A stretch of 64,000 nucleotides of DNA from positions 22,145 through 86,144 of IMG/VR virus record IMGVR_UViG_3300046055_000032. One strand, 5' to 3'. This document shows positions 25,512-61,915 of the stretch, piece after piece; position 1 is the stretch's first letter, and each line of letters starts with the position of its first letter. This DNA comes from a virus. Taxonomy: Duplodnaviria > Heunggongvirae > Uroviricota > Caudoviricetes. A program made the position numbers and the translations under genes. The notes under the pieces are model-generated. The model did no database searches and was not told the DNA's origin. It saw only the letters and a list, made by a program, of their open reading frames with translations.

Positions 25512-26774
25512 TCAGTCCGCGCTACGCTGCTTGCCGTGGACGTTGTACCGCGTAAAGTACGATTGCTCGCACGTCAAGTACAGCGCCCGCGTATCGAACT
25601 GTCCGCGGATGACCGGGTTATCCACGTCAACGTACAGCGTCGGGAAGCCCACCTTCATGTGCGCGTGGCGCTGGTCGATGAGGTAGGTGTGGGTCAGTCC
25701 CGTGCCGCCGTTCTCGCCGTCGTCGTCGAAGTCGTTCGTCCCGTTCGACGCCAGCTTCTTGTCGGCAACGATCGGCCGATCCTGGTAGGCGCGGATCGTG
25801 AAGGTGATGTCGCGCCCGGGGTGCGTGGCGGTGGTGCTGAGCCCGTCCATGTCCAGCTTCGCCTGCACGCTCGTCAGGTCGTACCGGCCCTGGCTTTGCA
25901 GCTCGCGATAGAACGCGCGCCGCGTGTCACGGCCCGTCAGGAAGACTTGAGCCGTCGGGTCCGCGCCGTTGTCCTCCGTGTCGTCGATGATGGTATCCCA
26001 TCCGTCGAGCTGCCACGTAAGGTTCTGGTTGTAGTTGTTCTTCGATCCGTCGGGGCGCGCCACGACGCTATCGAACGTGGTAGCGCTGCGATCAACGTCG
26101 CCCTCGTACGGGTCGTAGTGACCGTTATCGTTCGAGGACGCCAAGTCGTCGTCCTCTTGATCGCTGGCGATGTGGCGATCGATGGTCTCCAGACCCTTCG
26201 CGTTCGAGTTCGCGTCGTTCTTCGCATCGCTCGTCGCGTTGGCGCCGATGTCGTTCGAGTCCGCGTGCGCGGAACGAACCAGCTCTTCGTTGAGCAGCTG
26301 CGAGTGAATGTCCCGCATAACGGCGAGCTTCCACTCCCAGACGTCCAGCCCGTCGTCGTGCTGCGCACGGAACCCGGCGTCGGTCGTCAAGTTGAACGGC
26401 GAATGCAGGAACCCCGGGATGCTATCCAGCTCGGTCGGGCTCGTATCAATGTTGCTGGCGACCGTGCCTTGCGTCGAGCCGCTGGCCGTGTCAGCGTCCG
26501 GGTCGGCGCCGCCGGCGCCCTTCGTGTTCGGGTCGCTGGTCGTGACGCGGAAACCGGACCGCTCCCACGGCTCCTTCTTCAAGATCGCGTGAGCGTTGCT
26601 TTCACGGTTCACCTGGTCGTAAACCAGGGCGCCGTAGGTGACGTTGATGGCGCCACCAAGATTGCTCACGTCACCGGCCTTGAAGAAGTTCTTCGCGAAC
26701 TTGGGGTACGCCTTGTTCTCCAGGCTCCACTCGACGTAGCTGGAGACGTTGTTACCGAGTAGGTCGTTCGACAT
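25512..26774 (-). CDS. major capsid protein (HK97-fold candidate)
   Basis: 420 aa ORF directly downstream of the scaffold and protease genes, in the canonical gene order. Confidence 0.65.
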   Translation of the reverse strand: MSNDLLGNNVSSYVEWSLENKAYPKFAKNFFKAGDVSNLGGAINVTYGALVYDQVNRESNAHAILKKEPWERSGFRVTTSDPNTKGAGGADPDADTASGSTQGTVASNIDTSPTELDSIPGFLHSPFNLTTDAGFRAQHDDGLDVWEWKLAVMRDIHSQLLNEELVRSAHADSNDIGANATSDAKNDANSNAKGLETIDRHIASDQEDDDLASSNDNGHYDPYEGDVDRSATTFDSVVARPDGSKNNYNQNLTWQLDGWDTIIDDTEDNGADPTAQVFLTGRDTRRAFYRELQSQGRYDLTSVQAKLDMDGLSTTATHPGRDITFTIRAYQDRPIVADKKLASNGTNDFDDDGENGGTGLTHTYLIDQRHAHMKVGFPTLYVDVDNPVIRGQFDTRALYLTCEQSYFTRYNVHGKQRSAD

Positions 26775-26776
26775 GT

Positions 26777-27586
26777 TCAGCGACCTCCAAAGTAGGTCTT
26801 GTTCAGGTACTTGTTGACCTCGAAGTGGTTCTGCTTCGTCCCAGCGCGGAACCCAACGCGACCACTGGACTCGAACGTGCCCCCGCTCACGTCCCGATCC
26901 TCACCGATCGCCTTCTCGATCAAGTTCGGGAGCGCCTTCCGCGGATCGTTATCGTTCTTCTGGAACACTTCTTGCAGCTCGTCGCTGCGACCGAAACCCG
27001 GTGGCGCGGGCGTGGACGCTTTCGCGACCTCCTCAGCGCGCTCTTCAGCCTGAGACACGGCCCGGCTCGTCGCCTCGTCGAGCAGCTCCTCGACTTCGTC
27101 GCGCGTGAACGTGTCGCGGCTCTTCGGGATCTTGGACTCGTCCTCGTCCGTGGTATCGTTAGCCGGCTCCGAGGACGAGCGCTGGTGACGTTGCGCGTCG
27201 GAGTCCGTGTAACGGTCCGGCGCACCGCCGCCCTCCTCTTCCTCGGGGTTCTCCCCGACGGCCTCCTCCTGTTGGCCGTCCGGGAACTCCACGTCGTCCT
27301 CGGGATGAGGCTCGTCCTCCTTCAGGACGCGCCGCTCGATCCGGTCGAGCCGCTCACCCATGCGCTCCTGCTGCTTCGAAACGGACTGGAGCGCCTGCAC
27401 GGCCTTGTCGAGAACCTCCTCGGTCTCAGCTTCGGGCGAGCCCTCGTCCTCCTCGTCCTCGTCGCGCTCGGGCGAGCGATCCTGCGTCTCCTCGTCCGGG
27501 GGTCCAGTGTCGTTCATCAGTGCGATCTCCTCGTCGTCGTCCTCCTCCTCGTCGTCGGGAGGAGGCACGTTGGTATCCTCAGTCAT
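26777..27586 (-). CDS. scaffolding protein
   Basis: 269 aa, extremely acidic (D/E runs), coiled-coil; lies between the protease and the capsid gene. Confidence 0.6.
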   Translation of the reverse strand: MTEDTNVPPPDDEEEDDDEEIALMNDTGPPDEETQDRSPERDEDEEDEGSPEAETEEVLDKAVQALQSVSKQQERMGERLDRIERRVLKEDEPHPEDDVEFPDGQQEEAVGENPEEEEGGGAPDRYTDSDAQRHQRSSSEPANDTTDEDESKIPKSRDTFTRDEVEELLDEATSRAVSQAEERAEEVAKASTPAPPGFGRSDELQEVFQKNDNDPRKALPNLIEKAIGEDRDVSGGTFESSGRVGFRAGTKQNHFEVNKYLNKTYFGGR

Positions 27587-27637: not shown

Positions 27638-30600
27638 TCATGGAATCATACCTCTCGGCATGGCGTTCCCGGTCAGTTGTTCGTAAACGATCGGGAACGT
27701 GTCCTTGAACTCCAAGTAATCCTGCTCCGGCAACATGGACGCGTCAATGTTCCCGTCCAGGCTATGCTTCATCGCGTCGAACACCCGGTCAGGGTTATCG
27801 AACTCTTGATACATCTTGAAGCAGGCCGAGCATTGCTCGTTCCACTCCTCCTCGAACACTTCGCCGCCCAGCGCCGCGAACGCGAGCATGTGCGCGGCCA
27901 AGCTCGGGTCGTCCGTTTTCGTTAACCGGTGATCCACGCGCCGAGCCTGTGATCGCGGGATCTCGTTCAACGCCCTCACGAACGCGTCACTGTGCACGTG
28001 ACTGACGCCGTGCGCGTCCGCGCTCTTCTGTTGATGTTGACAGATCGCCCACGCACTCTCCTCGTCATGACCCTCGTCGCGCAAACTCTCGACGCACTCG
28101 TGCGCTTCTTTCGGGTTCGCGACGTGCTCGTCAACCGGGACGTCCCCCCCGTCGCCGTCCCGATCGCGCGGAGAGTCAGCGGCTCGCTGCTCGCGCCGCT
28201 GCTTGTCTTGCGCCATCTGTTGATCGAGGCCGTTAAAGATCCCGTCCTTGTCGGCGGCGGAGCCCTCGTGCTCGTTAACGTCGTCCGTTTCGTCGAGCCG
28301 GCGATCCTCGTAATCGTCCTCGTCCTCTTGCTCGAAACGGGTATCGTCGCGATCCTTGCCACGGATCATGCCGAGCGTGCCCTTGTACATGCTCGCGACC
28401 CGCTCGTGACTGGGCTTCTTCGTGAATTGGCGCAGCATGGCGTGACGTTTCGCGCGCCACTCGCTCGCGGCGTGAAGCTCGTCGAGCGTCTTGCTCATCG
28501 CCGCAACGTCCCCGTCGTCTCGGTGCTCGCAGTCCTCGGGGCAACCGTCTTCGTGCCGCGGGCACGCCCCGTACTCCTCGCTGTCCTCGTCCTCGTCGTC
28601 TTTGGCGAGGACGTCATCCAGCTGGTTCTCGTACTCCTTCATCGCGAACCCTCGCGGGCGTGTCCCGGCCGTGTCGTCGTCATCGTTCGCGGAGTCCTCC
28701 GTACGGTCACTGCCCGCCGGGTAAAGATAATCCTCGACGTCACCGAGCTGCGGCTTCTGCGACGACGCGTCAGCGCGCGCCACGTGCGCCGACGACGCCG
28801 CGGTCGGGCGCGCCGGATAATCCAACGGGAACCCCCGGAACGAGCCGCTGTCGTCGCTGCCACGATTCTGCCCGTACGTGGGCCGCTGACGCATCACTTC
28901 GCTGCCGAGCGACTTCATCTTGTGCTCACCGGTATCGCGGAAGTACCTGTCACCGCTCGGGTGAGCCAACTCGCGCGCGAGCGCGTTACGGTATCCCGGA
29001 AGGGTGTTCATGTCTTTTCTGTCAAGGACTCGCGCATAGTCCGAGGTGCCGCCATAGCCGTGTGACTCGACGGTCTCGATCACGTCCCGCAACGCTTCCG
29101 GCTTGATCTCGAAGATCTCTTCGATCTTCTCGTAATCCGGCTCACGACCAAGCATCTCCCGGACCTCCGGGAATCGGGCTCCGCCACCCTCGCCGCCGGG
29201 ATCGCCCCCATCATGGGGATCGCCCTCGCCGTGAGGCTCGTCACCCCCGCTCTCGGCGCTCTCGTCGTAATAGTAGCCGCCGCGCGGGCCTTGCTGTACG
29301 TCCGCTCCCTCGGGTGCGTCCGAGGGGTCATCGACGTACGTGCGATCCTTAACGAGCGTCTGCAATTCCTTCAGCGTCTTGTCGCGGTGCGCGGCGTGCT
29401 CGTCGTAACTGTCAGCGACGTGCTCGTCGAGGTCACTGATAACGTCAACGGCGCTTTCCAGCCATGCGATGTCGTCGGCGCTGACGTTGCGCTCGAACGC
29501 TCGCATGTACTCTTGAAAGTCATCGAGCGCGTCATGGACGTCCCTGCGTTCCTCGCGGCGCATCGCGTCAACGTGATCTTTGACGAGCGCGTCGTCTCGT
29601 TTCAGTCGCGCGATCGCGAGACCGGCCCGGTCAACGTTACCTTTCTGGAGATCGATGCTGGCCTCGTACAGGTAATCGGCGAGGGAGCCGCACGCGATAG
29701 CGTCCTTGAACGCGATACCGTCCAGGATCGCCGCCTTGCTCGTTTCGTCCTCGATGACGTCGTCGTGGGACCGATGCTCGTCCTCGTCATCGCGTCCCGT
29801 CTCGTCGAGGCGCTCCAGGCGGCGCTTCATCTCCTTGCCCTCCTCTTCTTCTTTCTCGTCGTCGCTGTCCGCTTCCTCGTCAGCGTCCGCTCCGTCCTCG
29901 TCGTTGAGGAGGTCGTCGAGCGCCTTGTCAACGGTCGCGAGCGCGTCCTCGTACTCTTCGACGTCCTCGTCACCGTCCTGCTTGTCCGGTTCCTCGTCGT
30001 CGTCGTTCCAGAAGAAACGATACGACTCTTCGCCGTCGCTGACTCGCATCCCGTTCTCGGTTTTCGCGATGACGTCGAACCCCGCGCCTTGATTCATGCC
30101 GCGATCGCAGATCGTGACGGCGCTGAGGCTAATCTTCTCGATCTCGTTAACGAGCTTGCACGTGAACCCGCTACAGTCCGTCGTTTGTTGGGACTGCACG
30201 GCTTGCCCGCTGATACTGAACGCGCGCAAATCACCTTTCAGGATCTTCTCCGCGATGTCGCGCCCGATCTCGTCGTCCGTGTAAATTTTCCCAACGACGA
30301 ACAGGGCTTCCGTCCCCGGTTCGACGTCCGCGTCCTTGAGCAGATCGAACCGTTGCAGATCACTGGGCGTGACGGCGCGGACCTCGGTCTTGTAAACCGT
30401 GCCGTCCTTCGCCTCCCACGATTCGAGGATCTCGCCCGGAATGATGTCCGTGTGCTGCAACGAGAACCGGGCGCGCTTCAAGAGTTGCGGGAGCGCCGCC
30501 CGGAGCGCGTCGCCTTTGATGAGGTCGTTTTCGTCGTCAACGACGGCCACCGACGCGGGACCGTAAATCGTGACGCCGTCGCGCGCCTTGAACACGCGCA

Positions 30601-31018
30601 TCTCGTTCCGCGGACTCGGACGCCGCGCCGCTTTTCGCGCTCGATTGATGGGGTTGCTGTCCTCGGGCTCCGCCGCGTCCTCGGGCTCGTTCGAGTCCTG
30701 GCAAGAGCAATCCGTTCCGCGGCCGCAGCCACAATCCTTCGCCGTCGCGTCCTCGTCGTCCTCTTCATCGTCTGCGGGAAAGTCACGCTCCTCGTCGTCG
30801 CCGCTGACGACTTGCCGGAAGGAGTCCGGGTCGCCTTTCAGGATGTCGTTCGCGACCGCGTCCGCGAGCTGTTTCGAGAGACCGTTGCTCCGCAGGTCCT
30901 CTCGGATGGTGGCGTACGCGGTATCGTCCCCGAACTCCTCGCGGACGCGCTGCGCCTTACGGAAATAGTGCAGGAACCCCTCGCTCGGGGTCCCGTCAGC
31001 GATTGGAGTGGCCACCAA
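27638..31018 (-). CDS. 1126-aa polyprotein with an HK97-family prohead protease domain (aa ~140-320) and a long acidic scaffold-like extension
   Basis: RVFKARDGVTIYGPASVAVVDDENDLIKGDA...LQHTD...GLRAFSISGQ resembles S78 prohead protease motifs; the remainder is D/E-rich; contains the shared YVDDPSDAPEGADVQQGPRGGYYYDES motif (nt ~29261-29341). Confidence 0.65.
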   Translation of the reverse strand: MVATPIADGTPSEGFLHYFRKAQRVREEFGDDTAYATIREDLRSNGLSKQLADAVANDILKGDPDSFRQVVSGDDEERDFPADDEEDDEDATAKDCGCGRGTDCSCQDSNEPEDAAEPEDSNPINRARKAARRPSPRNEMRVFKARDGVTIYGPASVAVVDDENDLIKGDALRAALPQLLKRARFSLQHTDIIPGEILESWEAKDGTVYKTEVRAVTPSDLQRFDLLKDADVEPGTEALFVVGKIYTDDEIGRDIAEKILKGDLRAFSISGQAVQSQQTTDCSGFTCKLVNEIEKISLSAVTICDRGMNQGAGFDVIAKTENGMRVSDGEESYRFFWNDDDEEPDKQDGDEDVEEYEDALATVDKALDDLLNDEDGADADEEADSDDEKEEEEGKEMKRRLERLDETGRDDEDEHRSHDDVIEDETSKAAILDGIAFKDAIACGSLADYLYEASIDLQKGNVDRAGLAIARLKRDDALVKDHVDAMRREERRDVHDALDDFQEYMRAFERNVSADDIAWLESAVDVISDLDEHVADSYDEHAAHRDKTLKELQTLVKDRTYVDDPSDAPEGADVQQGPRGGYYYDESAESGGDEPHGEGDPHDGGDPGGEGGGARFPEVREMLGREPDYEKIEEIFEIKPEALRDVIETVESHGYGGTSDYARVLDRKDMNTLPGYRNALARELAHPSGDRYFRDTGEHKMKSLGSEVMRQRPTYGQNRGSDDSGSFRGFPLDYPARPTAASSAHVARADASSQKPQLGDVEDYLYPAGSDRTEDSANDDDDTAGTRPRGFAMKEYENQLDDVLAKDDEDEDSEEYGACPRHEDGCPEDCEHRDDGDVAAMSKTLDELHAASEWRAKRHAMLRQFTKKPSHERVASMYKGTLGMIRGKDRDDTRFEQEDEDDYEDRRLDETDDVNEHEGSAADKDGIFNGLDQQMAQDKQRREQRAADSPRDRDGDGGDVPVDEHVANPKEAHECVESLRDEGHDEESAWAICQHQQKSADAHGVSHVHSDAFVRALNEIPRSQARRVDHRLTKTDDPSLAAHMLAFAALGGEVFEEEWNEQCSACFKMYQEFDNPDRVFDAMKHSLDGNIDASMLPEQDYLEFKDTFPIVYEQLTGNAMPRGMIP

Positions 31019-31109
31019 CAGCAGTGCGTGCCGGCGACATATATAGGCATTTCCCTACTTATGCACGCCCGCGGAACGTTTTCGCTGGACCCGAAAACGT
31101 CGAAAACGT

Positions 31110-31643
31110 TCACTCGACGTCGCGCTTCCGATCCCGAACCAACGCGGCAGCTTTCTCTAACAGCGCTCGCTCCCCGTCGGGGGCCACCGACTCCGCCATG
31201 TCCTCCACAACCCCGGCCGCTTCGTCGATGCCGCGATTCTCCGCCTGCTTCAGCCCACGCACGACGTGCGGCATCAATTCTCGGATGCGCGTCCCGGACA
31301 ACCCCGACAGAGAGTCATCACGGTTCGGTCCGGTCAAAAGCCCGTACGCGCGCTCGCGATGATCCGTGTCGAGCGCCCCATTGTGATCCTCCAACAGTTG
31401 CCGGCGCTCGCGCTCCCAACGACCACGCTCCTCCTCCCACGCACCCCGAACAAGATCACTTAACCGTTGACAGTGAGCGTCCTCCAACGCAGCGCGCGCC
31501 GCGTCAACGATCCGCACCGCCTCAAAGTCACAGTACTTCGCAACGATGATCCCCAGCGCTCGCGCATCGTCCACGTCCCCGGGCCGCGCGAAACGGTCCC
31601 GTTTGACGTCCCGAACGATCGGTTCCAGCCGATCCCGCATCAC
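31110..31643 (-). CDS. hypothetical (177 aa), first gene of the accessory island
   Basis: ORF; coiled-coil-like. Confidence 0.45.
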   Translation of the reverse strand: MMRDRLEPIVRDVKRDRFARPGDVDDARALGIIVAKYCDFEAVRIVDAARAALEDAHCQRLSDLVRGAWEEERGRWERERRQLLEDHNGALDTDHRERAYGLLTGPNRDDSLSGLSGTRIRELMPHVVRGLKQAENRGIDEAAGVVEDMAESVAPDGERALLEKAAALVRDRKRDVE

Positions 31644-31954
31644 GCGGACGCCTCCTCAACGTCTTCGTCAAGGTTGTGCGTCTCTTTCTCGGTCACGCGG
31701 TACGTGATGAGGACCTGGTGCCCGTTCCCACACGCGAGCGTTTCGACGACTTTGGCGGGGAAGCCGTTCGTTCGTAACCAGTTGACGGCGACCCGGTCGG
31801 CGCCAGCCTCGCACTCAGGACAGCGAGGCATCACACTCCCTCCTGCGCGTCGGGACGCCCATCCCGCGGCGATGCCAGCAGCTCGACTAACGCCTCCCGC
31901 CGAGCGTCTCCGAGGATGCTCGTGCGCCCATACCGCGAACGCGTCACGGCTCAT
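31640..31954 (-). CDS. Zn-ribbon protein (104 aa)
   Basis: Internal ATG (MSRDAF) chosen for its ATGA overlap with 31954..32547; CPECEAG...CGNGH. Confidence 0.45.
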   Translation of the reverse strand: MSRDAFAVWAHEHPRRRSAGGVSRAAGIAAGWASRRAGGSVMPRCPECEAGADRVAVNWLRTNGFPAKVVETLACGNGHQVLITYRVTEKETHNLDEDVEEASA

Positions 31955-32547
31955 CACCGCACCTCCAACTGGATGGGTTCCCAACCAACGTCACAGCACA
32001 GGTACGCGACGCCATCAAGGAGGATGATGTCACCGACGCGGAAGGATCGGATCGCGTCCTCGTCGTCGACGACCCGCGGAACGGGGCAGTGCGGACCACC
32101 CGCCTCGACGCTTTGCCAAAGCGCTTCGAGGAACGCGTCCGTCGTGATGCCCAGCTCGTTCCGCGCCAACGAGCGCGGGTCCTTGGTGGGCGCGTGAGCG
32201 GCCACTTCCTCGGGCGCGAGCTGGCCGCGCCACGTCTCCTCGTACTGGTCGCGAAGATCCGCGAGACTGGGCGTTTCCGGTTCGTCGTCGTCACCGTAGT
32301 TGCGATGCCCGATCGGATTCGGATACCTCATCCGTTGATTGTGATGCCAGATGCGGACCTCGGCCTGGTACTCGTTCAGCCCGTCGAGCACGGCCTGGAA
32401 CTGCTCGTAACGGTCCGGGTGCGATGCCTCGTCCGCGGTCTCGTCGCAGTGATAACCGCAAAAGCAAACGTCCGCAGCAGCAGCCGTGACGCGGCACGCG
32501 CGCCGCGCGTGCTCGTCATGCTTCGCGCCAGCGCGAGTCAGGCTCAC
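31954..32547 (-). CDS. hypothetical Cys-rich protein (197 aa)
   Basis: ORF; CFCGYHCDE and LCCDVGW motifs. Confidence 0.5.
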   Translation of the reverse strand: MSLTRAGAKHDEHARRACRVTAAAADVCFCGYHCDETADEASHPDRYEQFQAVLDGLNEYQAEVRIWHHNQRMRYPNPIGHRNYGDDDEPETPSLADLRDQYEETWRGQLAPEEVAAHAPTKDPRSLARNELGITTDAFLEALWQSVEAGGPHCPVPRVVDDEDAIRSFRVGDIILLDGVAYLCCDVGWEPIQLEVR

Positions 32548-32744
32548 AGGACCTCCTCCTGGTAGATCGCGTCCGTGTACGCGGCGCGGACCCTGCGATT
32601 GATCTCCGCACGCGATCCTTGCACGTCCGGGTGCTGTGTGGCGTCCCGGATCGCCGCAGCGAGGAAGCGGTCACTCCACTCGCCGTCAGTTCGCTGGACG
32701 GCTGTCGTCACGATCTCGCGGATAGCGGTTTGCGTCCTCATCAT
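32544..32744 (-). CDS. small protein (66 aa) driven by cassette copy A
   Basis: ATG 8 nt after GAGGTGCC. Confidence 0.5.
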   Translation of the reverse strand: MMRTQTAIREIVTTAVQRTDGEWSDRFLAAAIRDATQHPDVQGSRAEINRRVRAAYTDAIYQEEVL

Positions 32745-32811
32745 GGCACCTCAACGCGCCCGCGTGGGCGCATATAGTAGTAGGACCTACTTGCTTATTA
32801 AATTTTCTAAA
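32745..32811 (-). promoter_or_regulatory. Promoter/5'UTR cassette copy A (TTTAGAAAATTTAATAAG-CAAGTAGGTCCTACTAC-hairpin GCGCCCACGCGGGCGC-GAGGTGCC-ATG)
   Basis: Near-identical to copy B; TATA-like TTTAAT about 55 nt upstream of the start; SD-like GAGGTG. Confidence 0.6.
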
Positions 32812-33025
32812 GGCCCGACGGTTCGCCCACGGGCGGCAGCACCCGGATCGTCTCGCTCGTCTCGTGGCGCAATTGATCCATCACGAAACCCTCGTCCTTG
32901 ACGGCGGGCACTCCCTCAGCGAGCCCCGGACCCGCCTCCGGCCCGTACGGATGCAGCTGAAGCGGCACCCACTTGTCCCGTTTCTCCTCCCACACGCCCT
33001 CGTTCCAGTTACGGCGAATCATCAT
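32807..33025 (-). CDS. hypothetical (72 aa)
   Basis: ORF; weak. Confidence 0.35.
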   Translation of the reverse strand: MMIRRNWNEGVWEEKRDKWVPLQLHPYGPEAGPGLAEGVPAVKDEGFVMDQLRHETSETIRVLPPVGEPSGL

Positions 33026-33096
33026 AACGCCCCTGACCGGACTCGAACCGGCGGCACTCGATCAAACGGTGCCGGGCCCCGTGCGGCCTCGCGGGG

Positions 33097-33279
33097 CTAC
33101 GACCCGGTACGGACGACCTCGATCCTGCTGGCACGATCCGCATCCGACGCATCGCTCTCCCACAACGCGCCGCACGCGCACACGAACTTGTACGCGAACC
33201 CCCCGAACGCCTGAGGACGGTACGTGGGGCTGCCCACGGCCACCCCGTGGCAGCCGTTGCTCGGGCAAGACTGACTCAT
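33097..33279 (-). CDS. small Zn-ribbon protein (60 aa)
   Basis: Internal ATG (MSQSCPSNGCHG...CACG) of track ORF 33097..33750; 1-nt overlap with the upstream stop. Confidence 0.4.
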   Translation of the reverse strand: MSQSCPSNGCHGVAVGSPTYRPQAFGGFAYKFVCACGALWESDASDADRASRIEVVRTGS

Positions 33280-33992
33280 CACATACGCACGCCCTTGGGG
33301 ACGTCGCTTGCGCGCTTCGCCGCAGCCGCGACCTCCTCCTCGGCCTCGCCGGCGTCGTCCGACGCCCACACGGCCTTGTCCAGGCGGTCCAGCACGACGA
33401 GAGTGCCGGCGTCGAAAACGTTCTTCACGACGCCCTCGTACGTTTCCCCGTTCTTGTGCTCGACGGTGAACCGCTGACGGACGGTCGAGCCCTCGCCGCT
33501 GCCCGTCTTCGTGACGTCCCCGAACGAAAGGTCCTTGATCGGCGCCATCGTCTCGCGCTTCCGCTCCTCGCGCTCCTTCCAGCGGAGCGCCTCCTCGTGC
33601 TGCTTGTTGCGGCGCTCGCGCTCGGCCTGCTCGGCCAGCTCCTCCTCGCGCTCCCGGATGCGCTCGCGCGCGTCCTCGCTGACCGGGTACGCCGTCCAGC
33701 GGGTGCTCGTCGCCCAGAACGTGTCCCCGAGTTCGTCGTTCAGCTCGCACAGGACGCCGTCCGTGTACGAGCCGACCGCGTCAGGGTGCGAGAGCCGTTC
33801 GCGGGGTTCGTCGTCCACGATCGAAACGATGTACCCGGTCTTGCCCTCCGCGGGGCGAGGATGGACCTTCTCGACCCGCACGGTCGCCAACGCGGCGCGC
33901 TTGGGGCTATAGTTGTAAAGCAGCGCCGGGAACGTGTCCCCGACGTCCGTCGGCCAGTCCTCGGGATCGAGTCCTGTCGCGTTGATCGTCAT
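33279..33992 (-). CDS. hypothetical (238 aa) with a central coiled-coil (ERIREREEELAEQAERERRNKQ)
   Basis: Start reassigned to the internal ATG (MTINATG) downstream of cassette copy B; the track ORF extends upstream only by reading through the cassette. Confidence 0.55.
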   Translation of the reverse strand: MTINATGLDPEDWPTDVGDTFPALLYNYSPKRAALATVRVEKVHPRPAEGKTGYIVSIVDDEPRERLSHPDAVGSYTDGVLCELNDELGDTFWATSTRWTAYPVSEDARERIREREEELAEQAERERRNKQHEEALRWKEREERKRETMAPIKDLSFGDVTKTGSGEGSTVRQRFTVEHKNGETYEGVVKNVFDAGTLVVLDRLDKAVWASDDAGEAEEEVAAAAKRASDVPKGVRM

Positions 33993-34064
33993 CGTCTGGC
34001 ACCTCAAACGCCCATCGCGGGCGCGAATAGTAGTAGGACCTACTTGCTTATTAAATTTTCTAAA
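33993..34064 (-). promoter_or_regulatory. Promoter/5'UTR cassette copy B
   Basis: TTTAGAAAATTTAATAAGCAAGTAGGTCCTACTACTATTCGCGCCCGCGATGGGCGTTTGAGGTGCCAGACG-ATG. Confidence 0.6.
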
Positions 34065-34614
34065 CCTCCTGGGGCGAGTCGGGGGTGCTGACGTCAATCG
34101 CTAAACAATCCGGGAGCGGAAGCGCTTCGCTCCAAACCCCCAACCCCTCACAGGACAGCTCTCCCCTCTCTCGACCCTCCTCGGACTCGGCCGCCGCGAA
34201 CGCGCCCGGCGCCTCCCCGCACTCAAGCACCACATCCGCAACGACCGTGCTGTCAGCGCTCACCACGAGCGTATGCGAACCCTCGCCCAAGCACGGAAGG
34301 GCGCGGGCCTCCCCTATGTCCCAGCCCTCAGCCGCGAACTCGGCGCGATCCATGCCCGCCTCCACGCGCAGCGTCGCGTCCAGCGGCGCATTCTCAGCAC
34401 CAGTCAACGTGACGCGCAACGTGTCGATGGCAAGGTTCTCGTCCATGTCCGCACCGTCGGTGCGAGCGCTCGCGTACGGTGCCGGCTCGTACTCCAGCCA
34501 TTCCGGACCGACGAGAACGGTCGCCGCCAACGCGACGGTCACGGCCATCATCAGCACCACGCCAACGACCGGCGAGACGGCGCGATCCTCAACGGTTCGC
34601 GTATTCGCGATCAT
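34060..34614 (-). CDS. membrane-anchored / secreted protein (184 aa)
   Basis: Internal ATG (MIANTR) with ATGA overlap; N-terminal TM or signal helix VVGVVLMMAVTVALAATVLV; 4 Cys. Confidence 0.5.
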   Translation of the reverse strand: MIANTRTVEDRAVSPVVGVVLMMAVTVALAATVLVGPEWLEYEPAPYASARTDGADMDENLAIDTLRVTLTGAENAPLDATLRVEAGMDRAEFAAEGWDIGEARALPCLGEGSHTLVVSADSTVVADVVLECGEAPGAFAAAESEEGRERGELSCEGLGVWSEALPLPDCLAIDVSTPDSPQEV

Positions 34615-34955
34615 GGTTCGTCCTCCGGGTCGTGCGCGAGGGCCCGATAAGCGTCCCCAGTGTTGCGGGGGATCGAGCCCGTCATGTACTCCAGAAACAC
34701 CGTCAGGCATTCATCGACGTTCGTGTCGTCAGCGTCCCGCGCAGAAACCGACGTGTAGTCGAGGTAAATGCTGTCGGGATCGGTGGGTCGCCACACCTCC
34801 GCGATGATGCCCCGCTCGGCCGTGCGGCGGAACCGGACGCGCCCGCCGGTACCGAACCAGGCCTCGACCGCGGGTTCGCCCTGCTTGCTCGTCCGCGTGA
34901 CGCGGGTCACGGTGAGGCTGCTGTCGGGGGAGTCGTCGCCGGGTTCAGGCATCAT
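34611..34955 (-). CDS. hypothetical (115 aa)
   Basis: Internal start MMPEPGDD overlapping the stop of the 47-aa ORF. Confidence 0.5.
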   Translation of the reverse strand: MMPEPGDDSPDSSLTVTRVTRTSKQGEPAVEAWFGTGGRVRFRRTAERGIIAEVWRPTDPDSIYLDYTSVSARDADDTNVDECLTVFLEYMTGSIPRNTGDAYRALAHDPEDEP

Positions 34956-35088
34956 TCGCCCTCTCCCCCGCCTCGTCGGGGTGCGGGTACGCCGCGCGCT
35001 TCGCTTGCTTGCCAAGGTAACGCTGAACCTCGGCGCTGTGCTCGACCTTGTCGCCGGGCGGGACCAGGTCCGTGTTGGTTCCGTTCAT
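34945..35088 (-). CDS. small protein (47 aa) driven by cassette copy C
   Basis: My own translation (not in the ORF track): MNGTNTDLVPPGDKVEHSAEVQRYLGKQAKRAAYPHPDEAGERANDA; GAGGTGCC 4 nt upstream of the ATG. Confidence 0.4.
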   Translation of the reverse strand: MNGTNTDLVPPGDKVEHSAEVQRYLGKQAKRAAYPHPDEAGERANDA

Positions 35089-35155
35089 CGTGGCACCTCA
35101 AGCCCTCTCGGGCGCAATAAGTAGTAGGACCTACACCCTCATTAAAGTTTCTAAA
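35089..35155 (-). promoter_or_regulatory. Promoter/5'UTR cassette copy C
   Basis: TTTAGAAACTTTAATGAGGGTGTAGGTCCTACTACTTATTGCGCCCGAGAGGGCTTGAGGTGCCACG-ATG. Confidence 0.55.
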
Positions 35156-35422
35156 TTGGGAGCAGCGGGCAACCGACAAGCAGGGACACCCCTGACAACC
35201 ACGACGCCGAACACGCTCCCGTGTCGGCGTAACCGGCGAACCCGAAGCCAGCTCGCCCGAGCCGAACGAGCAGCTCTCGATCTACCGCCGAGCGGGCTCC
35301 CTGAGCCCACGGCAGGGCCGGAGCGACTCGTCAAGCGACGAGAAGGAAAAGCAAAGGCGGGCGTGCGCCCCGTTGAAGGTTAAGGTGAATCGTAAGCGCC
35401 CGCACGCTCGGGCAGCCCTCGA

Positions 35423-35563
35423 TCACCGCTCCGGCAACGGGACCGGCACGATCACGCCGTCACCGCCGCAATGAACGTGTTTGAACATCACGGCGTGCAG
35501 CGCGCTGGCACAGTACGCGTGATTGCTGCCGGTGATGTCGATCTTGAACGCGACGTCACACAT
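35423..35563 (-). CDS. small Cys/His protein (46 aa)
   Basis: Internal ATG of track ORF 35423..35650; weak. Confidence 0.3.
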   Translation of the reverse strand: MCDVAFKIDITGSNHAYCASALHAVMFKHVHCGGDGVIVPVPLPER

Positions 35564-35786
35564 CGACGTGCTCCGGCCAGTCGTGAACCTGCTTGAGCGA
35601 CAAGAACCGCTCGACGCTGGTCGCGGTCTCGCGGTAAAGCTTGTAATCACTCAAGTCGTACTCCTCCCGGATCTGGCTGGCGGACTCTTGCGCCCGCTGC
35701 GCACCCGCAGGGCTGTCGTCGAAGATCTCCATCTCGACCAGCGTGCGCGGGTTCGCTTCATCACGGAGAGCGACGATCAATGGCAT
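35556..35786 (-). CDS. hypothetical (76 aa)
   Basis: ORF preceded by the degenerate cassette GATTTAATATCCTTAAAG...GAGGTCGCCATCGA-ATG. Confidence 0.45.
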   Translation of the reverse strand: MPLIVALRDEANPRTLVEMEIFDDSPAGAQRAQESASQIREEYDLSDYKLYRETATSVERFLSLKQVHDWPEHVDV

Positions 35787-35832
35787 TCGATGGCGACCTC
35801 ATGTGGGGGCTTTAAGGATATTAAATCTTCGC
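35787..35832 (-). promoter_or_regulatory. Degenerate promoter cassette (TTTAATAT ... GAGGTCGCC)
   Basis: Similar architecture to copies A-D, with lower identity. Confidence 0.4.
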
Positions 35833-37200
35833 TTACTCGACATAGCCGTATTGCCCGAAGCAGTGACCGTTCTCGCGCACCCGCGGCGGGCACTCCGGTT
35901 TCTCGACGTCAACGCCCCGCTCTCTCTGGAACGCCCACTCACCGAGCTTCTCGGCGTAGTCCAAGTACTGGGGATCGTCGTCGTTGTCGCCCTTGTAGAC
36001 GCCCGCGAAGTCCTGCGCCCACTCCTTGACTTCCTCGACCTGCTCGCTCATCACTTGGATCTCGGCCGGGACGCCATCGACCGTCACGACCACGTGAACG
36101 GCGCGATAGTAACCACCGGCTGGGTCCTCCCGAAACTTGTCGTCCACTTCGCGAACCTCAGCGCCTTCGGCGACGCTCCACTCTTGCAACCGGCGAACGG
36201 TCTGCTCCAGGTCGTCGGACGTGTCCGTGAGGACGCGCATCCCGATGATGTCGTCCATGTGCTCTAACGGATCGTCGTCGTACTCCTCCTTGCGATCCTC
36301 ACGTTTTGTCTTGAGCGACCCGGCATCCTTGAGGCGACCACGGGTCTTGGAACCCGAGAACGCTTCCCTCAAGGATGAGTGAAGGTCGTAGAACGGTTCC
36401 GTGAGTTGACCAACCCACTCGTCGTACTCGTTCTCGCTCGCGCCCATCTCTGGCGCGTCCTGGATGTGCTCCGCCCATGTTCGATCGAACGCGGGCGCGT
36501 GCTCGACCACAGCCTCCCGATCCTCAGCCGCCGCGAGCGCTTTCCGCCGATCGACAAACACCCCACCTTGCGGACCCTCGTGAACGGGAACGCCCTCGGG
36601 CACATCGTCTGGACCCTCCACGTACTGGCGATGATCGGGCGGTGGGAGATCGCCCGGGGTCGTTTGCGTCACGACGATCTCGCCAGTGTTGACGCCAACC
36701 TTCAGGAGCGATGTCTCGATCTCTTCGTTACGCATCGCCTCGAACGAGTTCCCGGTCGCCTGCCGAGCATCATCCAGCGATCCGTAGATGCTTACGTGCG
36801 GGTGATCGAGTTCCTGGTCGAACGCGTCGCGTTTCCAGTCAAGGTAAACGTCGCTCTCCGGGAAGTCAACCGCAACGCCCACGACCTTACCGTCCTCGTC
36901 GATGACCCGATAACAGGAACCATCCCCGAACCAGTTCCCGTCCTCTTGCTTCACGATCACTTCACCCGTCTCGGGATCAATGTCGTGATCCACGACCCTG
37001 TCAAGCGACACAAGCCCGTCCTCCTCGTCTTGTTCTTCGCGCAGCTGCTCCTCGAACTCGGACCCCGGTGCCTCCTCACGCATCCACTGACTTTTCACAG
37101 CGACGCGCTGCTCGACATCGCGTTGCTCGTCCCCGTCGCGTCTCCCCTCATGCAGCCAGTGAGCGTTCCTCTCGCTCTCACGCCAATCGATCGTGATCAT
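35833..37200 (-). CDS. RelA/SpoT-like nucleotidyltransferase (small-alarmone-synthetase/toxSAS-like) domain protein
   Basis: C-terminal SGSKTRGRLKDAGSLKTK...DDIIGMRVLT...GGYYRAVHVVVTVDGVPAEIQVMSEQ..W matches the GRVKs..Si..K / DliGiRii / YrSlHlvv...EiQiRT motifs of the RelA_SpoT synthetase fold; the start is set to the internal ATG that gives an ATGA overlap; carries the shared QYVEGPDDVPEGVPVHEGPQGGVFVD motif. Confidence 0.6.
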   Translation of the reverse strand: MITIDWRESERNAHWLHEGRRDGDEQRDVEQRVAVKSQWMREEAPGSEFEEQLREEQDEEDGLVSLDRVVDHDIDPETGEVIVKQEDGNWFGDGSCYRVIDEDGKVVGVAVDFPESDVYLDWKRDAFDQELDHPHVSIYGSLDDARQATGNSFEAMRNEEIETSLLKVGVNTGEIVVTQTTPGDLPPPDHRQYVEGPDDVPEGVPVHEGPQGGVFVDRRKALAAAEDREAVVEHAPAFDRTWAEHIQDAPEMGASENEYDEWVGQLTEPFYDLHSSLREAFSGSKTRGRLKDAGSLKTKREDRKEEYDDDPLEHMDDIIGMRVLTDTSDDLEQTVRRLQEWSVAEGAEVREVDDKFREDPAGGYYRAVHVVVTVDGVPAEIQVMSEQVEEVKEWAQDFAGVYKGDNDDDPQYLDYAEKLGEWAFQRERGVDVEKPECPPRVRENGHCFGQYGYVE

Positions 37201-39248
37201 ACCGGGACTGCCTCCTGCCATTGCTCGATCGCTTCCTCCCACGCCCGCTGGAACGCTGTCTCGGACGGTTCGTGAACATCGTCCAAACGGTACACGGCCT
37301 CTTCCGGGCTCGCCACGACGTACTCGGCTTCGTCGTCGAAAAGACCCGGGCCCGTCATCCAAGACGTGGCGATGTTCTCCACGGGAACGCGAGCACTCAG
37401 CACCACGTCACCGAAATCTTGCGCGACTTCCGGGTCGGCCGTCCACGATTCGAGCGCGCGATGCTGGACGGCCAGCTGCTCCTCGTTCCCTTCCTCTTTC
37501 GCGCGCCGTAGCTCGTCCGCGATCTCGCCACTGACGCCGCGGTACATTGTGACGGTGTCCGTGTCCGGGTCGTACGTCGGGTCCACGTCACGCACGAACG
37601 CTTGCGTGAACGCGGCCATGCGCGCCATGTGCTCGGCGTCCCGTTGCCCAACGCCAAACGACTCCGAGCGCTTCTGTTCCTCGGCCAGGATGCCGGGATG
37701 CACGAACGAGTTCCCGGTCTTCTGCACCGCCCACGCCCACATCGGTAACGTGGACGGTTCCTCAGGGCTCTGGCCCCAACTGTCCGTCGCGTTAACGGCT
37801 TCCGGGAGCTTCTCCACTAACTGTTCCCCGATCTTACTGTAAAGCGGGCCGGCGTGCAGTTCCTCGAACGTTGATGTCTCACCGATCGTCACTTCGTCAG
37901 CGTTCGTCTTGACCAGGTTCTTGAGATGCGACGACGCGGCCTCGCGGTAATCCGTTTCGTCGAGGCGTTCCCGGATCGCGTCCCAGTCGATGCCGTCCAC
38001 CAGCTTTTCGCCGTACTGTTCCGCGTCCTGGATCGAGACCGTCTCGCTCACGCGGCTCGATTCGTGCGCCGCGTCGCTGGTCTCGACTTGCTCCGACGCG
38101 ACGTCGTGACCCGTCGCGGAAACGTGCCCGCCGAGACCGGACGGCGTCTCGAAACAGTGACCCGGCACGTCACAGTACTCTTCACCCTGCTTGTGGATGC
38201 GCGTCATCTGTAACTCGGCACCGACCGGCGCGTCGAGCAGCTCCGAAACGTACCGTCTCGTTTTCCCGATGCCGTCCGAGTCAACGTCCCGGAGACGATC
38301 CACCCACTCGTTGCGGACAGCGACCGCCTCTTCGTTGTACAGTTGCCAGCGCTCCTCCTGGTCCATGATGTTAACGTTCTCGCGCGTGTAGGTGTCACCG
38401 TCCGGGTCCCCAGCGACGAGCACCTCTGCCTCCTCACCCCCGAACAGTCCCGAGGACAGCCAGGAACCAATAACGCGCTCCACGGGAACGCGCGTCGAGA
38501 TGACGACGCCGTGGTTGTCCTCGGCAAAGTTGCCCGCCACGACAGGGTTGGCCGTCCACGACTCCACTGCCCGATGCGTGACGTCCGCTTCGTCGGTCGA
38601 TGGGCCCACGCCCGAGCGGATGAGTTGGTCAAGCTCTTCCTGAAAGTGCTCCGCGCCCGTGCCGCGGAACACTTCGATGGTGTCGGTGCCCGGGTCGTAG
38701 GTCGGATTCCACTCCCGATGCAACGCTTGGTCCAACGCCGCCGCCTGCTCGAACTGTTCAGCCTGCTCGGGCGACAGGTCGTGCTCCGCCACTTCTTCCT
38801 CCACGTCCGGGTGAAGCTTGTCAACGCCGTACTTCTCGCGCGCCCACGCCCACACCGGGACCGTCGCCTCGCTGTTCGGCCAGCCGCCGAAACGGTTCAG
38901 CGCGTCCGGTGTGACGTCCTCGATCTCCCCGGGCGCTTCGACCAGGCGGAACGGTTCCTCGAACTGTTCGTACTCCTCCATCGTCATGCGGGAGGGATCA
39001 AGGCCGTTCTCCCAGTCGGACAGGGGCGCTTGCTCTAACCGTTCCTGCACAGCGTCACGGTACCCTTCTGCAAGCGTCGCCGGTGATGCGCCTGCGACAC
39101 CTGACGACTCGGCTTCGTCCTCATCAACGCTCCCCTCCGACTCGTAGTACAAGCCACCGCGCGGTCCTTCATGGATCTCGACGCCGTTCGGCGCTTCCGA
39201 AGGATCGTCAATGTAGATGTTCGCTTTCGCAGCGCGCTTCCCCGTCAT
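37197..39248 (-). CDS. protein with two tandem ADP-ribosyltransferase-like (R-S-E) domains
   Basis: Two homologous roughly 170-aa segments, each with FRG/YRG (Arg), ESWTA (S-x-T) and GGEEAEVLV / DDEAEYVV (E-x-E) in the order and spacing of ART toxins; N-terminal shared motif IYIDDPSEAPNGVEIHEGPRGGLYYES. Confidence 0.55.
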   Translation of the reverse strand: MTGKRAAKANIYIDDPSEAPNGVEIHEGPRGGLYYESEGSVDEDEAESSGVAGASPATLAEGYRDAVQERLEQAPLSDWENGLDPSRMTMEEYEQFEEPFRLVEAPGEIEDVTPDALNRFGGWPNSEATVPVWAWAREKYGVDKLHPDVEEEVAEHDLSPEQAEQFEQAAALDQALHREWNPTYDPGTDTIEVFRGTGAEHFQEELDQLIRSGVGPSTDEADVTHRAVESWTANPVVAGNFAEDNHGVVISTRVPVERVIGSWLSSGLFGGEEAEVLVAGDPDGDTYTRENVNIMDQEERWQLYNEEAVAVRNEWVDRLRDVDSDGIGKTRRYVSELLDAPVGAELQMTRIHKQGEEYCDVPGHCFETPSGLGGHVSATGHDVASEQVETSDAAHESSRVSETVSIQDAEQYGEKLVDGIDWDAIRERLDETDYREAASSHLKNLVKTNADEVTIGETSTFEELHAGPLYSKIGEQLVEKLPEAVNATDSWGQSPEEPSTLPMWAWAVQKTGNSFVHPGILAEEQKRSESFGVGQRDAEHMARMAAFTQAFVRDVDPTYDPDTDTVTMYRGVSGEIADELRRAKEEGNEEQLAVQHRALESWTADPEVAQDFGDVVLSARVPVENIATSWMTGPGLFDDEAEYVVASPEEAVYRLDDVHEPSETAFQRAWEEAIEQWQEAVPV

Positions 39249-40180
39249 CGATCCCCGTCACCTCGTTCTTGCTCGGGCTCCACGATACCGGTACGGAAAT
39301 GCCGGTGACGGCACCTGGGATGCGGGAGCGGGAAGTTGTCGTCGCGGACAGGGTCCCACGAGGGGTTCCCCAGGTCCGGGTACTCGGGGTGCTGTCCCGT
39401 GCTGACGTCAATAATGAGTTCTTTCAGTTCCGGTTTCGGGATGCCGCCCTCGCTCTCCTCCATGATGACGCGGCACACGTCGCACGTTTTCTCGTCGTTC
39501 ACGGTCCCGAACTCGTACAAGAAGGAACGGTCCGTGCGCTCCTCCGCTTCATCGTACGCTTCGTCGCGCGCCGTCTGGTACACTTTCCACGTTTCCGTGG
39601 ACGCGATGCGCTCCAACTGGGAACGTACCTCGTGCCCGATCTCTTGTACGAGACGCGAACTGATGCGCCCCGGACTCACGCGCCCGTCACGGTACGCTTC
39701 AAGAATCACTTCCCGGATCGTGCGCGCCTGCTCGTTCGTAAAGGACGCGAACGTGTCCGCTAACGTTTCCTCACTTAACGCTTGCTGGAACGAGCGTTCG
39801 TGCCGTGGCGAGAACGCCATCGAGACGCCCACGCCCGTCGCGACGTCCTGTAGCCCGCGAACGTACGTGTCGCGTAACCGTGACTCCATGATGGACTGCA
39901 TACGGTCCGCGGTCCGTTCCGAAATATTGTTCACGAGCTGGTTCAGTTCGTCCGGTGACGCGTGCCGATGCTGCGGCAACGCCTCCAACTCTTCCCGCAA
40001 GACGCGATCCAGATCCCGCGACAAGCGCTCCTCCGCGACGTCAGCGCCGCTCTGCTTCCGCAACCATCGCGCCGCTTCCTGGTGCTTGCGCAGGAACGCA
40101 TGAAAGTTCGCGAGCCGGTTCTCGGCCGTGCTTTGTCCCAGTTCCAGTACGTGCTGGTTCGCGCGAAAGATCGGGTTCAT
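39245..40180 (-). CDS. phage Mu gpF-like minor head (head morphogenesis) protein
   Basis: C-terminal PLPHPRCRHRH matches the conserved 'hPnCRC' signature of Phage_Mu_F; located just downstream of the portal. Confidence 0.65.
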   Translation of the reverse strand: MNPIFRANQHVLELGQSTAENRLANFHAFLRKHQEAARWLRKQSGADVAEERLSRDLDRVLREELEALPQHRHASPDELNQLVNNISERTADRMQSIMESRLRDTYVRGLQDVATGVGVSMAFSPRHERSFQQALSEETLADTFASFTNEQARTIREVILEAYRDGRVSPGRISSRLVQEIGHEVRSQLERIASTETWKVYQTARDEAYDEAEERTDRSFLYEFGTVNDEKTCDVCRVIMEESEGGIPKPELKELIIDVSTGQHPEYPDLGNPSWDPVRDDNFPLPHPRCRHRHFRTGIVEPEQERGDGDR

Positions 40181-61805: not shown

Positions 61806-61915
61806 GCAGTCGATTGGTTGGGCTTTAATCTTTCTAAATCCGCAAGGCGTTGGTGTGAGAAGAAAACGTCGATGAATCGCTCTCCCATCGAATCATCCAG
61901 AGCGGGGGCGAAGCG

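Follow-up and report, generated by a model that had tools for sequence, protein, structure and literature searches.

A lineage-specific run of small accessory genes with repeated promoter-like cassettes between the toxin and protease genes of an uncultured haloarchaeal tailed virus

Introduction

Which genes does a tailed archaeal virus carry in the middle of its morphogenesis genes, and how might they be regulated? The question is raised by positions 31110–35832 (hereafter the island) of a 64,000-nucleotide stretch of IMG/VR virus record IMGVR_UViG_3300046055_000032 (positions 22,145 to 86,144 of that record; hereafter the window), which belongs to an uncultured haloarchaeal tailed virus. Here a run of small genes is inserted between genes for portal, MuF and toxin-like proteins on one side and a protease–scaffold–capsid block on the other. 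We followed up a sequence-only reading that had called it an island of morons with promoters of its own, and favour, at a probability of about 0.6, an accessory region of ORFans that is specific to this virus lineage, occupies a cargo slot, has its own regulatory cassettes and begins with two genes (g1 and g2) linked to the toxin gene upstream.

Results

Coding potential of the island

Thirteen minus-strand open reading frames (ORFs; g1–g13, Table 1) cover 88% of the island. Twelve are intact small genes and one, g11, is the C-terminal remnant of a longer gene; the small-gene run described earlier is thus real, though its count of about 14 included more than the sequence holds. The G+C content at third codon positions (GC3) is 0.73–0.92 in the island ORFs as against 0.37–0.62 at second positions (GC2), the same signature as in the flanking genes, and neither the alternative frames nor the 334-nt stretch at 35089–35422 shows a high GC3.

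A near-identical g9 led to a 7.8-kb JGI metagenome contig (L020), which matches window positions 38318–31291 at about 92% identity and has the same gene order. At 1–9% divergence the 12 intact ORFs have no insertions or deletions relative to L020 over about 4 kb of coding sequence, while gaps occur in cassette A (see below) and in the non-coding pieces, among them the spacer downstream of g2 (90% identical, four gaps). The least conserved piece is the gap between g7 and g8 (83%). Clear constraint is seen in g4 (8 synonymous, 3 non-synonymous codon differences) and g5.

A repeated cassette between stop and start codons

The repeat search returned one outstanding family, a direct repeat of 68 nt in three copies, named cassettes A, B and C. 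A 38-nt core is 100% identical in A and B (0.00 matches expected in shuffled sequence), and the 14-nt dyad GTAGGTCCTACTAC occurs three times against 0.08 expected by chance; neither is present anywhere else in the 64 kb. Each cassette starts at or inside the stop codon of the gene before it and ends at the start codon of the next one, the stops of g5 (cassette B) and g8 (cassette A) being the TAG of the cassette's TTTAG. On the coding strand the order is TTTAGAAA(A/C)TTTAAT(A/G)AG, three variable positions, the dyad GTAGG-T-CCTAC, CTACTAT, a GC hairpin (GCGCCC-loop-GGGCGC) and TTGAGGTGCCA, with GAGGTG as the Shine–Dalgarno (SD) sequence and the ATG 0–6 nt further on. Cassette C is laid out as TTTAGAAACTTTAATGAG-GGT-GTAGGTCCTACTAC-..GCCCGAGAGGGC..TTGAGGTGCCACG, followed by the ATG of g3. 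The hairpin stem is conserved across the cassettes and the loop differs in each copy.

The cassettes split the island into g1–g2, g3–g5, g6–g8 and g9–g13. The sequence-only reading had proposed at least four transcription units, each behind a near-identical cassette of about 70 nt. The repeat itself held up, but only three copies exist: 5' of g1 lies only an AT-rich element of another kind (element F), hence not a fourth cassette. Exact-pattern scans of viral, genome and metagenome collections found no further cassette.

Logan contigs of the same virus (L008 and L019, SRR18079251) end exactly at cassettes; one of 54.9 kb breaks off at cassette A, and another of 1275 bp reaches from cassette B to A. 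The repeats thus break k-mer assemblies, and island variants may be hidden in data of this kind.

Absence from relatives and the variable slot

Relatives were recovered by a protease-domain search (L009, L010/L011/L012 and L013; capsid proteins 61–65% identical), to which capsid-profile scans added only L023 (55%) and L024 (34%). The nearest isolates are Druskaviridae, with 25–27% protein identity, including HCTV-5 (NC_021327; capsid protein 25%). By tblastn, none of the 13 island proteins was found in L009, L010–L013, L023, L024 or HCTV-5. The genes are accessory, as had been proposed: all 13 are missing from seven relatives whose capsid proteins are 25–65% identical, and the alternative that they are conserved core structural genes fails.

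The place of the island, between portal/MuF and protease, had been called unusual, a description that the relatives weaken. It is empty or holds about 0.1–0.3 kb in L013 and L023, one gene of 83–91 amino acids (aa) in L010–L012, and two small genes in L024. In L009 it is taken up by a 74-aa gene and, on the opposite strand, 12 tRNA genes; the cargo of HCTV-5 comprises HNH endonucleases, a sialidase, an integrase and a zeta-toxin/ParB protein. Because its content varies from relative to relative, we regard the slot as a recurrent cargo site. The 12 tRNA genes of L009 lie at 8509–9746 (GCA_964507475.1, CAZDQT010000038.1); its capsid protein is the closest among the relatives (65%).

Cassette exchange and gene turnover relative to L020

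L020 has each of the three cassettes at the orthologous position. The 3' half of each (hairpin, loop, SD) is specific to its orthologue pair and identical between the window and L020. The spacer after the TATA-like box is swapped: it reads GAGGGT in cassette C and AAGCAA in cassette A of the window, against AAGCAA in C and GAGGGG in A of L020. Swapped spacers next to orthologue-specific 3' halves show that patches have been exchanged between non-orthologous cassettes, and this is the sole direct support for a recombinational role of the cassettes. In cassette A of L020 a 5-nt deletion shortens the dyad and keeps its symmetry.

The single difference in gene content lies between g10 and g12, where L020 has an extra 0.84 kb with four ORFs (85, 36, 85 and 99 aa) and the window has 45 unalignable nucleotides (a scar at about 31908–31953) and g11, which aligns to the last 25 residues of the 99-aa gene intact in L020. 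The 36-aa ORF is a truncated duplicate of the g12 N-terminus. The difference is not bounded by cassettes; it involves the duplicated g12 N-terminus.

The first two genes and the upstream RelA/SpoT-like toxin

Identity to L020 reaches about 99% over a block of about 920 nt that takes in the RelA_SpoT catalytic domain (98.6%), the element between toxin gene and g1, g1 itself (99.1%) and g2 (98.6%), which is also called as a 46-aa gene in L020. Outside the block, identity falls to 91% in the N-terminal part of the RelA/SpoT-like gene, 86% in the ADP-ribosyltransferase (ART) gene and 90% in the spacer. Among 191 MuF toxins, 89% have small putative immunity ORFs directly downstream (PMC10083569). 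Given the conserved block, the position right after the toxin gene, the lack of a cassette and this MuF precedent, g1 and g2 probably belong with the RelA/SpoT-like toxin as candidate immunity or neutralising genes, and are better explained as its partners than as morons. Neither falls into a known immunity family: searches of Pfam and PHROGs gave no match to either, nor did NCBIfam and PADLOC match g1.

A pilin-like protein and otherwise unclassified products

The secreted or membrane protein noticed earlier can be specified as g5. Its N-terminus matches PF07790 (8e-8; 33.4 bits, cut-off 25.2) and TIGR02537 (2e-9; 36.7 bits, cut-off 20), and a class III signal peptide (DRA|VSPVVGVVLMMAVTVALAA), that is, a prepilin-type motif and a hydrophobic helix, can be read directly. 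The family alignment shows a conserved C-terminal domain with four cysteines, common to four other clusters. Three PHROGs of unknown function also match the g5 N-terminus. By its sequence, g5 has an archaeal type IV pilin/archaellin N-terminal domain and is predicted to be exported, which makes it the sole classifiable protein of the island; a role at the cell surface is conceivable. Apart from this pilin-like N-terminus, neither scans against Pfam, NCBIfam, PHROGs and PADLOC nor two structure searches returned a functional match; the PADLOC defence models matched no island protein. A weak PHROG match of g4 to "virion structural protein" has E = 0.07.

Scattered homologues in other halophile viruses

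Megablast of 16 kb against GenBank phages gave no match, and tblastn of the island proteins gave no hit in 50,697 phage and 72,556 plasmid records. Among about 15 billion proteins, the island proteins were found only on the 86-kb JGI contig that is evidently the source of the window, on L020 and on Logan contigs from that sample series. A HMMER scan of 1.84 billion (1.84e9) cluster representatives with the concatenated proteome as query (g2, g3 and g11 left out) gave 33 hits including self. Homologous clusters were found for g1 (n = 2), g4 (n = 1), the g5 C-terminal domain (n = 4), g6 (n = 3), g10 (n = 10), g12 (n = 1) and the g13 N-terminus (n = 4, small proteins sharing its first ~80 aa); g7, g8 and g9 had none beyond near-identical copies.

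The homologue contexts retrieved are small-gene arrays in other halophile virus contigs, each sharing one gene with the window, with an integrase, HNH endonucleases, an ExoX-like gene or type IV CRISPR-like csf genes upstream of terminase as neighbours. The g4 homologue (P0022, 58–62% identical) adjoins an integrase on an unrelated virus contig, and the g12 homologue (P0027, 66%) is located among the early genes of a different virus. Such scattered single-gene homologues are the mosaic distribution typical of viral ORFans. The homologues of g1 are P0024 and P0038; a 1.6-kb contig from another sample (L016) carries two tandem g1 paralogues (508–732 and 772–978; 56% and 52% identical).

The different halovirus with the g12 homologue comes from the same samples (L021, 4011–7484, and L022, 1195–4668; JGI 3300046050 Ga0496843_00166; SRR18079259). 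There the g12 homologue adjoins matches to Csf1 (weak) and Csf3 and a phosphoadenosine phosphosulfate (PAPS) reductase, all upstream of terminase. Csf1 and Csf3 are components of type IV CRISPR-Cas systems.

Promoter-like features and related boxes in the window

The arrangement of AGAAA and TTTAAT looks like a haloarchaeal transcription factor B recognition element (BRE) and TATA box, and the cassette as a whole like an archaeal promoter with a 5' untranslated region; no sigma-70-type site is present at the cassettes. In the haloarchaeal virus HF2, intergenic repeats of 58 bp and 29 bp that carry AT-rich motifs all showed promoter activity with a bgaH reporter, the TATA box begins at −26 from the mapped transcription start, and the repeats were proposed to define temporal classes (class I versus class II) through zinc-finger/helix–turn–helix (HTH) factors (PMC8707807). 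Applied to our cassettes, the HF2 spacing would place the start at about cassette position 36–41, at the foot of the GC hairpin, and would give a leader of 27–33 nt that contains the hairpin and GAGGTG. The dyad, between the TATA-like box and the predicted start, is where a repressor would be expected to act.

Looser versions of the cassette elsewhere in the window lie only before non-structural genes. The sequence GAGGTGCCA occurs five times in 64 kb (0.36 expected), in the three cassettes and twice on the plus strand (573 and 2261), always downstream of an AT-rich box. Boxes resembling TTTAGAAANTTTAAT (at most three mismatches) number six (0.27 expected): the three cassettes, 2198 (+), 540 (−) and 61824 (−); none lies in the structural blocks at 4.2–31 kb and 35.8–48 kb. 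Element F resembles element E at 534–554. On the simplest reading, the box-bearing sites would place non-structural genes in one regulon, apart from the late genes. A 403-aa protein encoded at 621–1832 on the plus strand has C2H2 zinc-finger and HTH matches, and the element upstream of its gene shares GAGGTGCCA with the cassettes; the protein is a candidate regulator of promoters of this class.

Features of the island and its flanks

Pfam and PHROGs searches of the window proteins placed the flanking genes (Table 1), with the RelA/SpoT-like and ART pair, MuF and portal upstream of the island and the protease–scaffold–capsid block downstream, and bore out the flanks proposed earlier. The window has a G+C content of about 62% and is read on the minus strand almost throughout, from 63.7 kb down to 4.2 kb, with a small divergent plus-strand module at 0.2–4.1 kb. 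The likely start of the RelA/SpoT-like gene is the ATG at 37200, which overlaps the ART stop. The protease match covers residues 140–331 of the 1126-aa protein; relatives have a separate protease of 264–271 aa in place of this fusion. In two of them a gene resembling GIY-YIG homing endonucleases (L012, 2848–3438; L013, 7685–8308) lies between the separate protease and the counterpart of the ~850-aa protein.

Table 1 Coordinates of the island genes, repeats and flanking genes in the window
Feature	Position	Strand	Remarks
TerL (terminase large subunit)	46473–47966	minus	
Portal	40648–42699	minus	
MuF	39245–40222	minus	
ART protein	37197–39248	minus	683 aa, DRAT-like ADP-ribosyltransferase domain
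RelA/SpoT-domain protein	35833–37200	minus	upstream flank; PF04607 at 4e-11
Element F	35812–35830	minus	AT-rich, promoter-like, GATTTAATATCCTTAAAG; between RelA/SpoT-like stop and g1; AT-rich scan and alignment
g1	35556–35786	minus	76 aa, acidic; GC3 0.83
g2	35423–35563	minus	46 aa, 3 Cys; start overlaps g1 stop (ATGTGTGA)
Non-coding spacer	35156–35422	minus	267 nt; weak hairpin and T-tract at 35345–35371
Cassette C	35088–35155	minus	71% identical to A; before g3
g3	34945–35088	minus	47 aa
g4	34611–34955	minus	114 aa
g5	34060–34614	minus	184 aa, archaeal type IV pilin-like
Cassette B	33997–34064	minus	87% identical to A; before g6
g6	33279–33992	minus	237 aa; N-terminal domain, long helix, 4-stranded beta domain
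g7	33097–33279	minus	60 aa, 4-Cys zinc-ribbon-like
g7–g8 gap	33026–33096	minus	71 nt, with tRNA T-arm-like GGTTCGAGTCCGG
g8	32807–33025	minus	72 aa
Cassette A	32744–32811	minus	reference copy; before g9
g9	32544–32744	minus	66 aa
g10	31954–32547	minus	197 aa, 7 Cys; small conserved family, core ..W.GE..ALW..VE.GG..CPIPR..IRSF.VGD..
g11	31831–31947	minus	38 aa, C-terminal remnant of 99-aa gene
g12	31640–31831	minus	63 aa, zinc-ribbon (CPEC...C..H)
g13	31110–31640	minus	176 aa, helical
Inverted repeat	31074–31111	minus	perfect, 9–11 nt, with two T4 tracts; right after g13 stop
AT-rich element (CCTATATATG)		minus	between the post-g13 inverted repeat and the protease gene
Protease fusion	27638–31018	minus	1126 aa; head-maturation protease fused to ~850-aa protein, downstream flank; phrog_23555 at 9e-38
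269-aa protein	26777–27586	minus	
Major capsid protein	25512–26774	minus	
TTTAGAAAGATTAAA box	61824–61838	minus	non-structural right-hand region
Cassette D	2198–2272	plus	diverged full-length copy, TTTAGAAAGTTTAATGAGGGG....GAGAGGTGCCAGAC, then GTG of 138-aa gene
Element E	534–581	plus	inverted AT-rich box and GAGGTGCCA; 5' of 403-aa protein

The spacer and cassette C together make up the 334-nt non-coding stretch 3' of g2. A structured RNA in this stretch or in the spacer was rejected (z-score of the spacer fold −1.2, no Rfam match). In the window as a whole, Rfam returned nothing at the gathering threshold, with only a spurious miRNA match in the island at E ≤ 5, and ARAGORN called no tRNA. 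The g7–g8 gap also has acceptor-like pairing; since neither ARAGORN nor Rfam matched it, a tRNA or an attP remnant was dropped as its identity. Given the tRNA array of L009, it could be a decayed tRNA gene. Reading g11 and g12 as one 104-aa fusion was likewise rejected: the L020 gene and the P0027 homologue begin at the methionine of MPRCPEC, and the part upstream of it aligns to the C-terminus of another gene.

The ART protein consists of two similar halves, each with the motifs WAWA..K.G...HP and TYDP.TDT, and is a tandem duplication of an ART-like domain; L023 has a single ART domain, fused to MuF. A motif of about 30 aa, Y(I/V)(D/E)(D/G)P(S/D)(E/D)(A/V)P(N/E)G...(E/Q)GP(R/Q)GG(L/V/Y)(Y/F), is found at exactly three places in the window, all on the minus strand: at the N-terminus of the ART protein (about 39100–39190), in the middle of the RelA/SpoT-like protein (about 36510–36600) and in the middle of the protease fusion (about 29220–29310). 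It recurs in a giant protein of L009 (about 785–925) and in the zeta-toxin/ParB protein of HCTV-5 (L001; sites 12830–13003 and 16439–16549). Possibly it marks packaged or processed internal effector proteins for capsid targeting or for processing by the prohead protease. None of the island proteins contains it (..DDPS.AP.G....GP[RQ]GG.YY).

Discussion

Proposed organisation and its weak points

We propose that the slot is the junction of two morphogenesis operons, terminase–portal–MuF–toxins upstream and protease–scaffold–capsid–tail downstream, and that the island in it has two parts. The first, g1–g2, follows the RelA/SpoT-like toxin and would act with it. The second comprises g3–g5, g6–g8 and g9–g13, each headed by a 68-nt composite regulatory cassette of a purine-rich, BRE-like AGAAA, TATA-like TTTAAT, the GTAGGTCCTAC dyad, a GC hairpin in the leader, GAGGTG and ATG. 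Host RNA polymerase with the TATA-binding protein and transcription factor B (TBP/TFB) would start at each cassette and express the genes behind it independently of the late structural operon, probably not late in infection. The sites with shared boxes would form a common regulon that includes the gene of the candidate zinc-finger/HTH regulator. The host cell, and not the virion, would be where the products act; g5 could alter the cell surface, and the remaining products would be small acidic or zinc-ribbon proteins. Gene conversion would keep the cassettes alike, and gene content turns over fast. Roles in anti-defence or superinfection exclusion, raised by the sequence-only reading, are hypotheses.

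A number of observations count against this proposal. The cassette hairpins do not exceed shuffled sequence in stability (z −1.8 to 0.0), nor does the 334-nt non-coding stretch fold better than its shuffles. Hairpins with T-tracts 3' of g2 and g13 are terminator-like, but such structures number 3 against 3.4 expected in shuffles and their stability is no higher (z −0.9 and 0.0), and we rejected the idea that hairpins or terminators are thermodynamically exceptional here. No terminator lies between the three cassette units, which could also be expressed by read-through from upstream. Codon differences from L020 total 54 synonymous and 79 non-synonymous, indicating mild constraint only, and g6, g10 and g12 look nearly neutral. 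The genomes known to carry the island number two. As to g1–g2, the g1 homologues of L016 are not beside a detectable RelA/SpoT gene, and the MuF–ART fusion of L023 directly precedes the protease with no small ORF between them, so immunity genes are not obligatory in this virus group. The nucleotide signature is not foreign either: the dinucleotide distance of the island falls at the 33rd percentile among 4.7-kb windows, and its G+C content (65.7%) is about 3 points above the 61–64% found elsewhere, a test by which a foreign-origin composition was rejected.

Alternative explanations

The cassettes could instead be mainly recombination modules, an archaeal counterpart of the promoter early stem-loop (PeSL) elements of T4-like phages, that shuffle ORFans, perhaps via mini-circles, and act as promoters only incidentally. 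The idea does not conflict with the organisation we favour, and several points speak for it: the layout of stop, AT-rich promoter, GC stem-loop, SD and ATG is that of PeSL (PMC2839356), the slot is hyperplastic and filled with ORFans, the 38 nt identical in cassettes A and B and the patches exchanged between non-orthologous cassettes point to recombination, and gene content has turned over between 92%-identical genomes. As the primary function we nevertheless find it doubtful, because the sole gene-content difference lies at the duplicated g12 N-terminus instead of at cassettes, the two available genomes include no variant that lacks or swaps a whole cassette-bounded module, and scans of viral, genome and metagenome collections did not find the cassette. 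We think it quite improbable that the whole island, orphan genes included, is an array of immunity or antitoxin genes for the upstream ART and RelA/SpoT-like toxins. Toxin genes do stand directly upstream, small immunity ORFs usually follow MuF toxins (PMC10083569) and g1–g2 are co-conserved with the toxin domain; yet the high-identity block takes in only these two genes, the 334-nt non-coding stretch parts g2 from g3, no protein but the pilin-like g5 matches a Pfam, NCBIfam, PHROGs or PADLOC family, an exported g5 misfits cytoplasmic immunity, and the ART-bearing relatives L009 and L023 lack all island genes.

The same strand and the tight packing shared with the morphogenesis genes, together with the weak PHROG match of g4, would suit conserved components of head assembly or decoration that are expressed late. 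Such genes should not be missing from relatives with 25–65% identical capsid proteins in which MuF or toxin abuts the protease; moreover, homologues of g4, g6, g10 and g12 sit in non-structural small-gene regions of other viruses, and the island proteins do not have the GP[RQ]GG motif of the flanking putative internal proteins, which leaves this explanation very improbable. Slighter still is the chance that the ORFs are accidental open frames in GC-rich DNA and the repeats non-functional duplications. High-GC genomes do yield many spurious ORFs and most of those in the island have no homologues, but the GC3/GC2 contrast is frame-specific, 12 ORFs are free of indels over about 4 kb while non-coding pieces are gapped, seven genes (g1, g4, g5, g6, g10, g12 and g13) have independent homologues, and the repeats fit exactly between stop and start codons.

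Comparison with known systems

In function, the closest counterpart of the cassette is the set of intergenic repeats of HF2 and other haloferacalesviruses (PMC8707807), of which, by sequence, it is an analogue and not a homologue. Both are repeats of tens of base pairs, confined to intergenic regions of haloarchaeal tailed viruses, with AT-rich BRE/TATA motifs, further conserved blocks and positions kept in related genomes; the HF2 repeats have been proposed to mark a temporal gene class under virus zinc-finger/HTH proteins. Sequence homology is lacking, the alpha, beta and gamma motifs of HF2 having no match in the window (one CCCTTTAC match at 53112 is unrelated). The repeat of the window, in contrast, runs on through a hairpin and an SD leader to the start codon, its copies are clustered in 2.4 kb inside the morphogenesis region and exchange patches, and its promoters are putative.

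In architecture the cassettes are closest to the PeSL of T4-like phages (PMC2839356; PMC4122927), and they are homologous neither to these nor to the HF2 repeats. PeSL and cassettes both flank ORFans in a plastic region, have a stop–promoter–stem-loop–SD–ATG layout in common and share between copies enough identity for homologous exchange. The promoter is of the sigma-70 type in PeSL and of the archaeal BRE/TATA type here, a terminator function of the hairpin is unsupported here, and neither mini-circles nor cassette-bounded indels were seen. Speculatively, the cassettes might be the PeSL counterpart of archaeal viruses in both respects: a promoter, operator and leader module read through the GTAGGTCCTAC dyad by a virus zinc-finger/HTH regulator that times a host-takeover regulon, and at once a recombination site for the exchange of ORFans among co-occurring haloviruses. 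We hold this combination to be unlikely; it would explain why island genes occur singly in unrelated viruses of the same brine samples.

Morons, a concept of Juhala and Hendrix for lambdoid and HK97-like phages (summarised in PMC2839356), are like the island genes in being extra genes inside a late operon that are absent from the same place in relatives and have putative promoters of their own. The island is an array of many genes where morons are single genes, and it has no distinct composition and no convincing terminators, so the moron label proposed for it earlier fits by accessory status and fails by composition and by terminators that do not exceed shuffles. Polymorphic toxin loci of MuF proteins (PMC5576092; PMC10083569) likewise combine MuF, ART-type and RelA/SpoT-type toxin domains and small ORFs; the toxins of the window are separate genes and not MuF fusions, of which L023 has one, and the pattern fits at most g1–g2, which behave with the toxin domain as one conserved block. 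The slot of the druskavirus HCTV-5 (NC_021327) carries non-structural cargo at the same place (ART, HNH endonucleases, sialidase, integrase, zeta-toxin/ParB), with wholly different gene content, no repeated cassette and a capsid identity of 25%. Accessory ORFans with repeated promoter-like elements of their own in a variable slot thus have clear precedents, and the island is not a new type of system.

Implications

The island is a compact and well-delimited example of fast-turnover accessory genes and of their putative regulation in tailed archaeal viruses. It offers three near-identical promoter-like cassettes that are usable for haloarchaeal reporter work, candidate host-directed proteins that include a virus-encoded pilin-like protein (g5), and a candidate block of toxin and partners in the RelA/SpoT-like domain with g1–g2. 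If the cassettes are both regulatory and recombinogenic, the modular shuffling described for PeSL would extend from T4-like phages to archaeal viruses.

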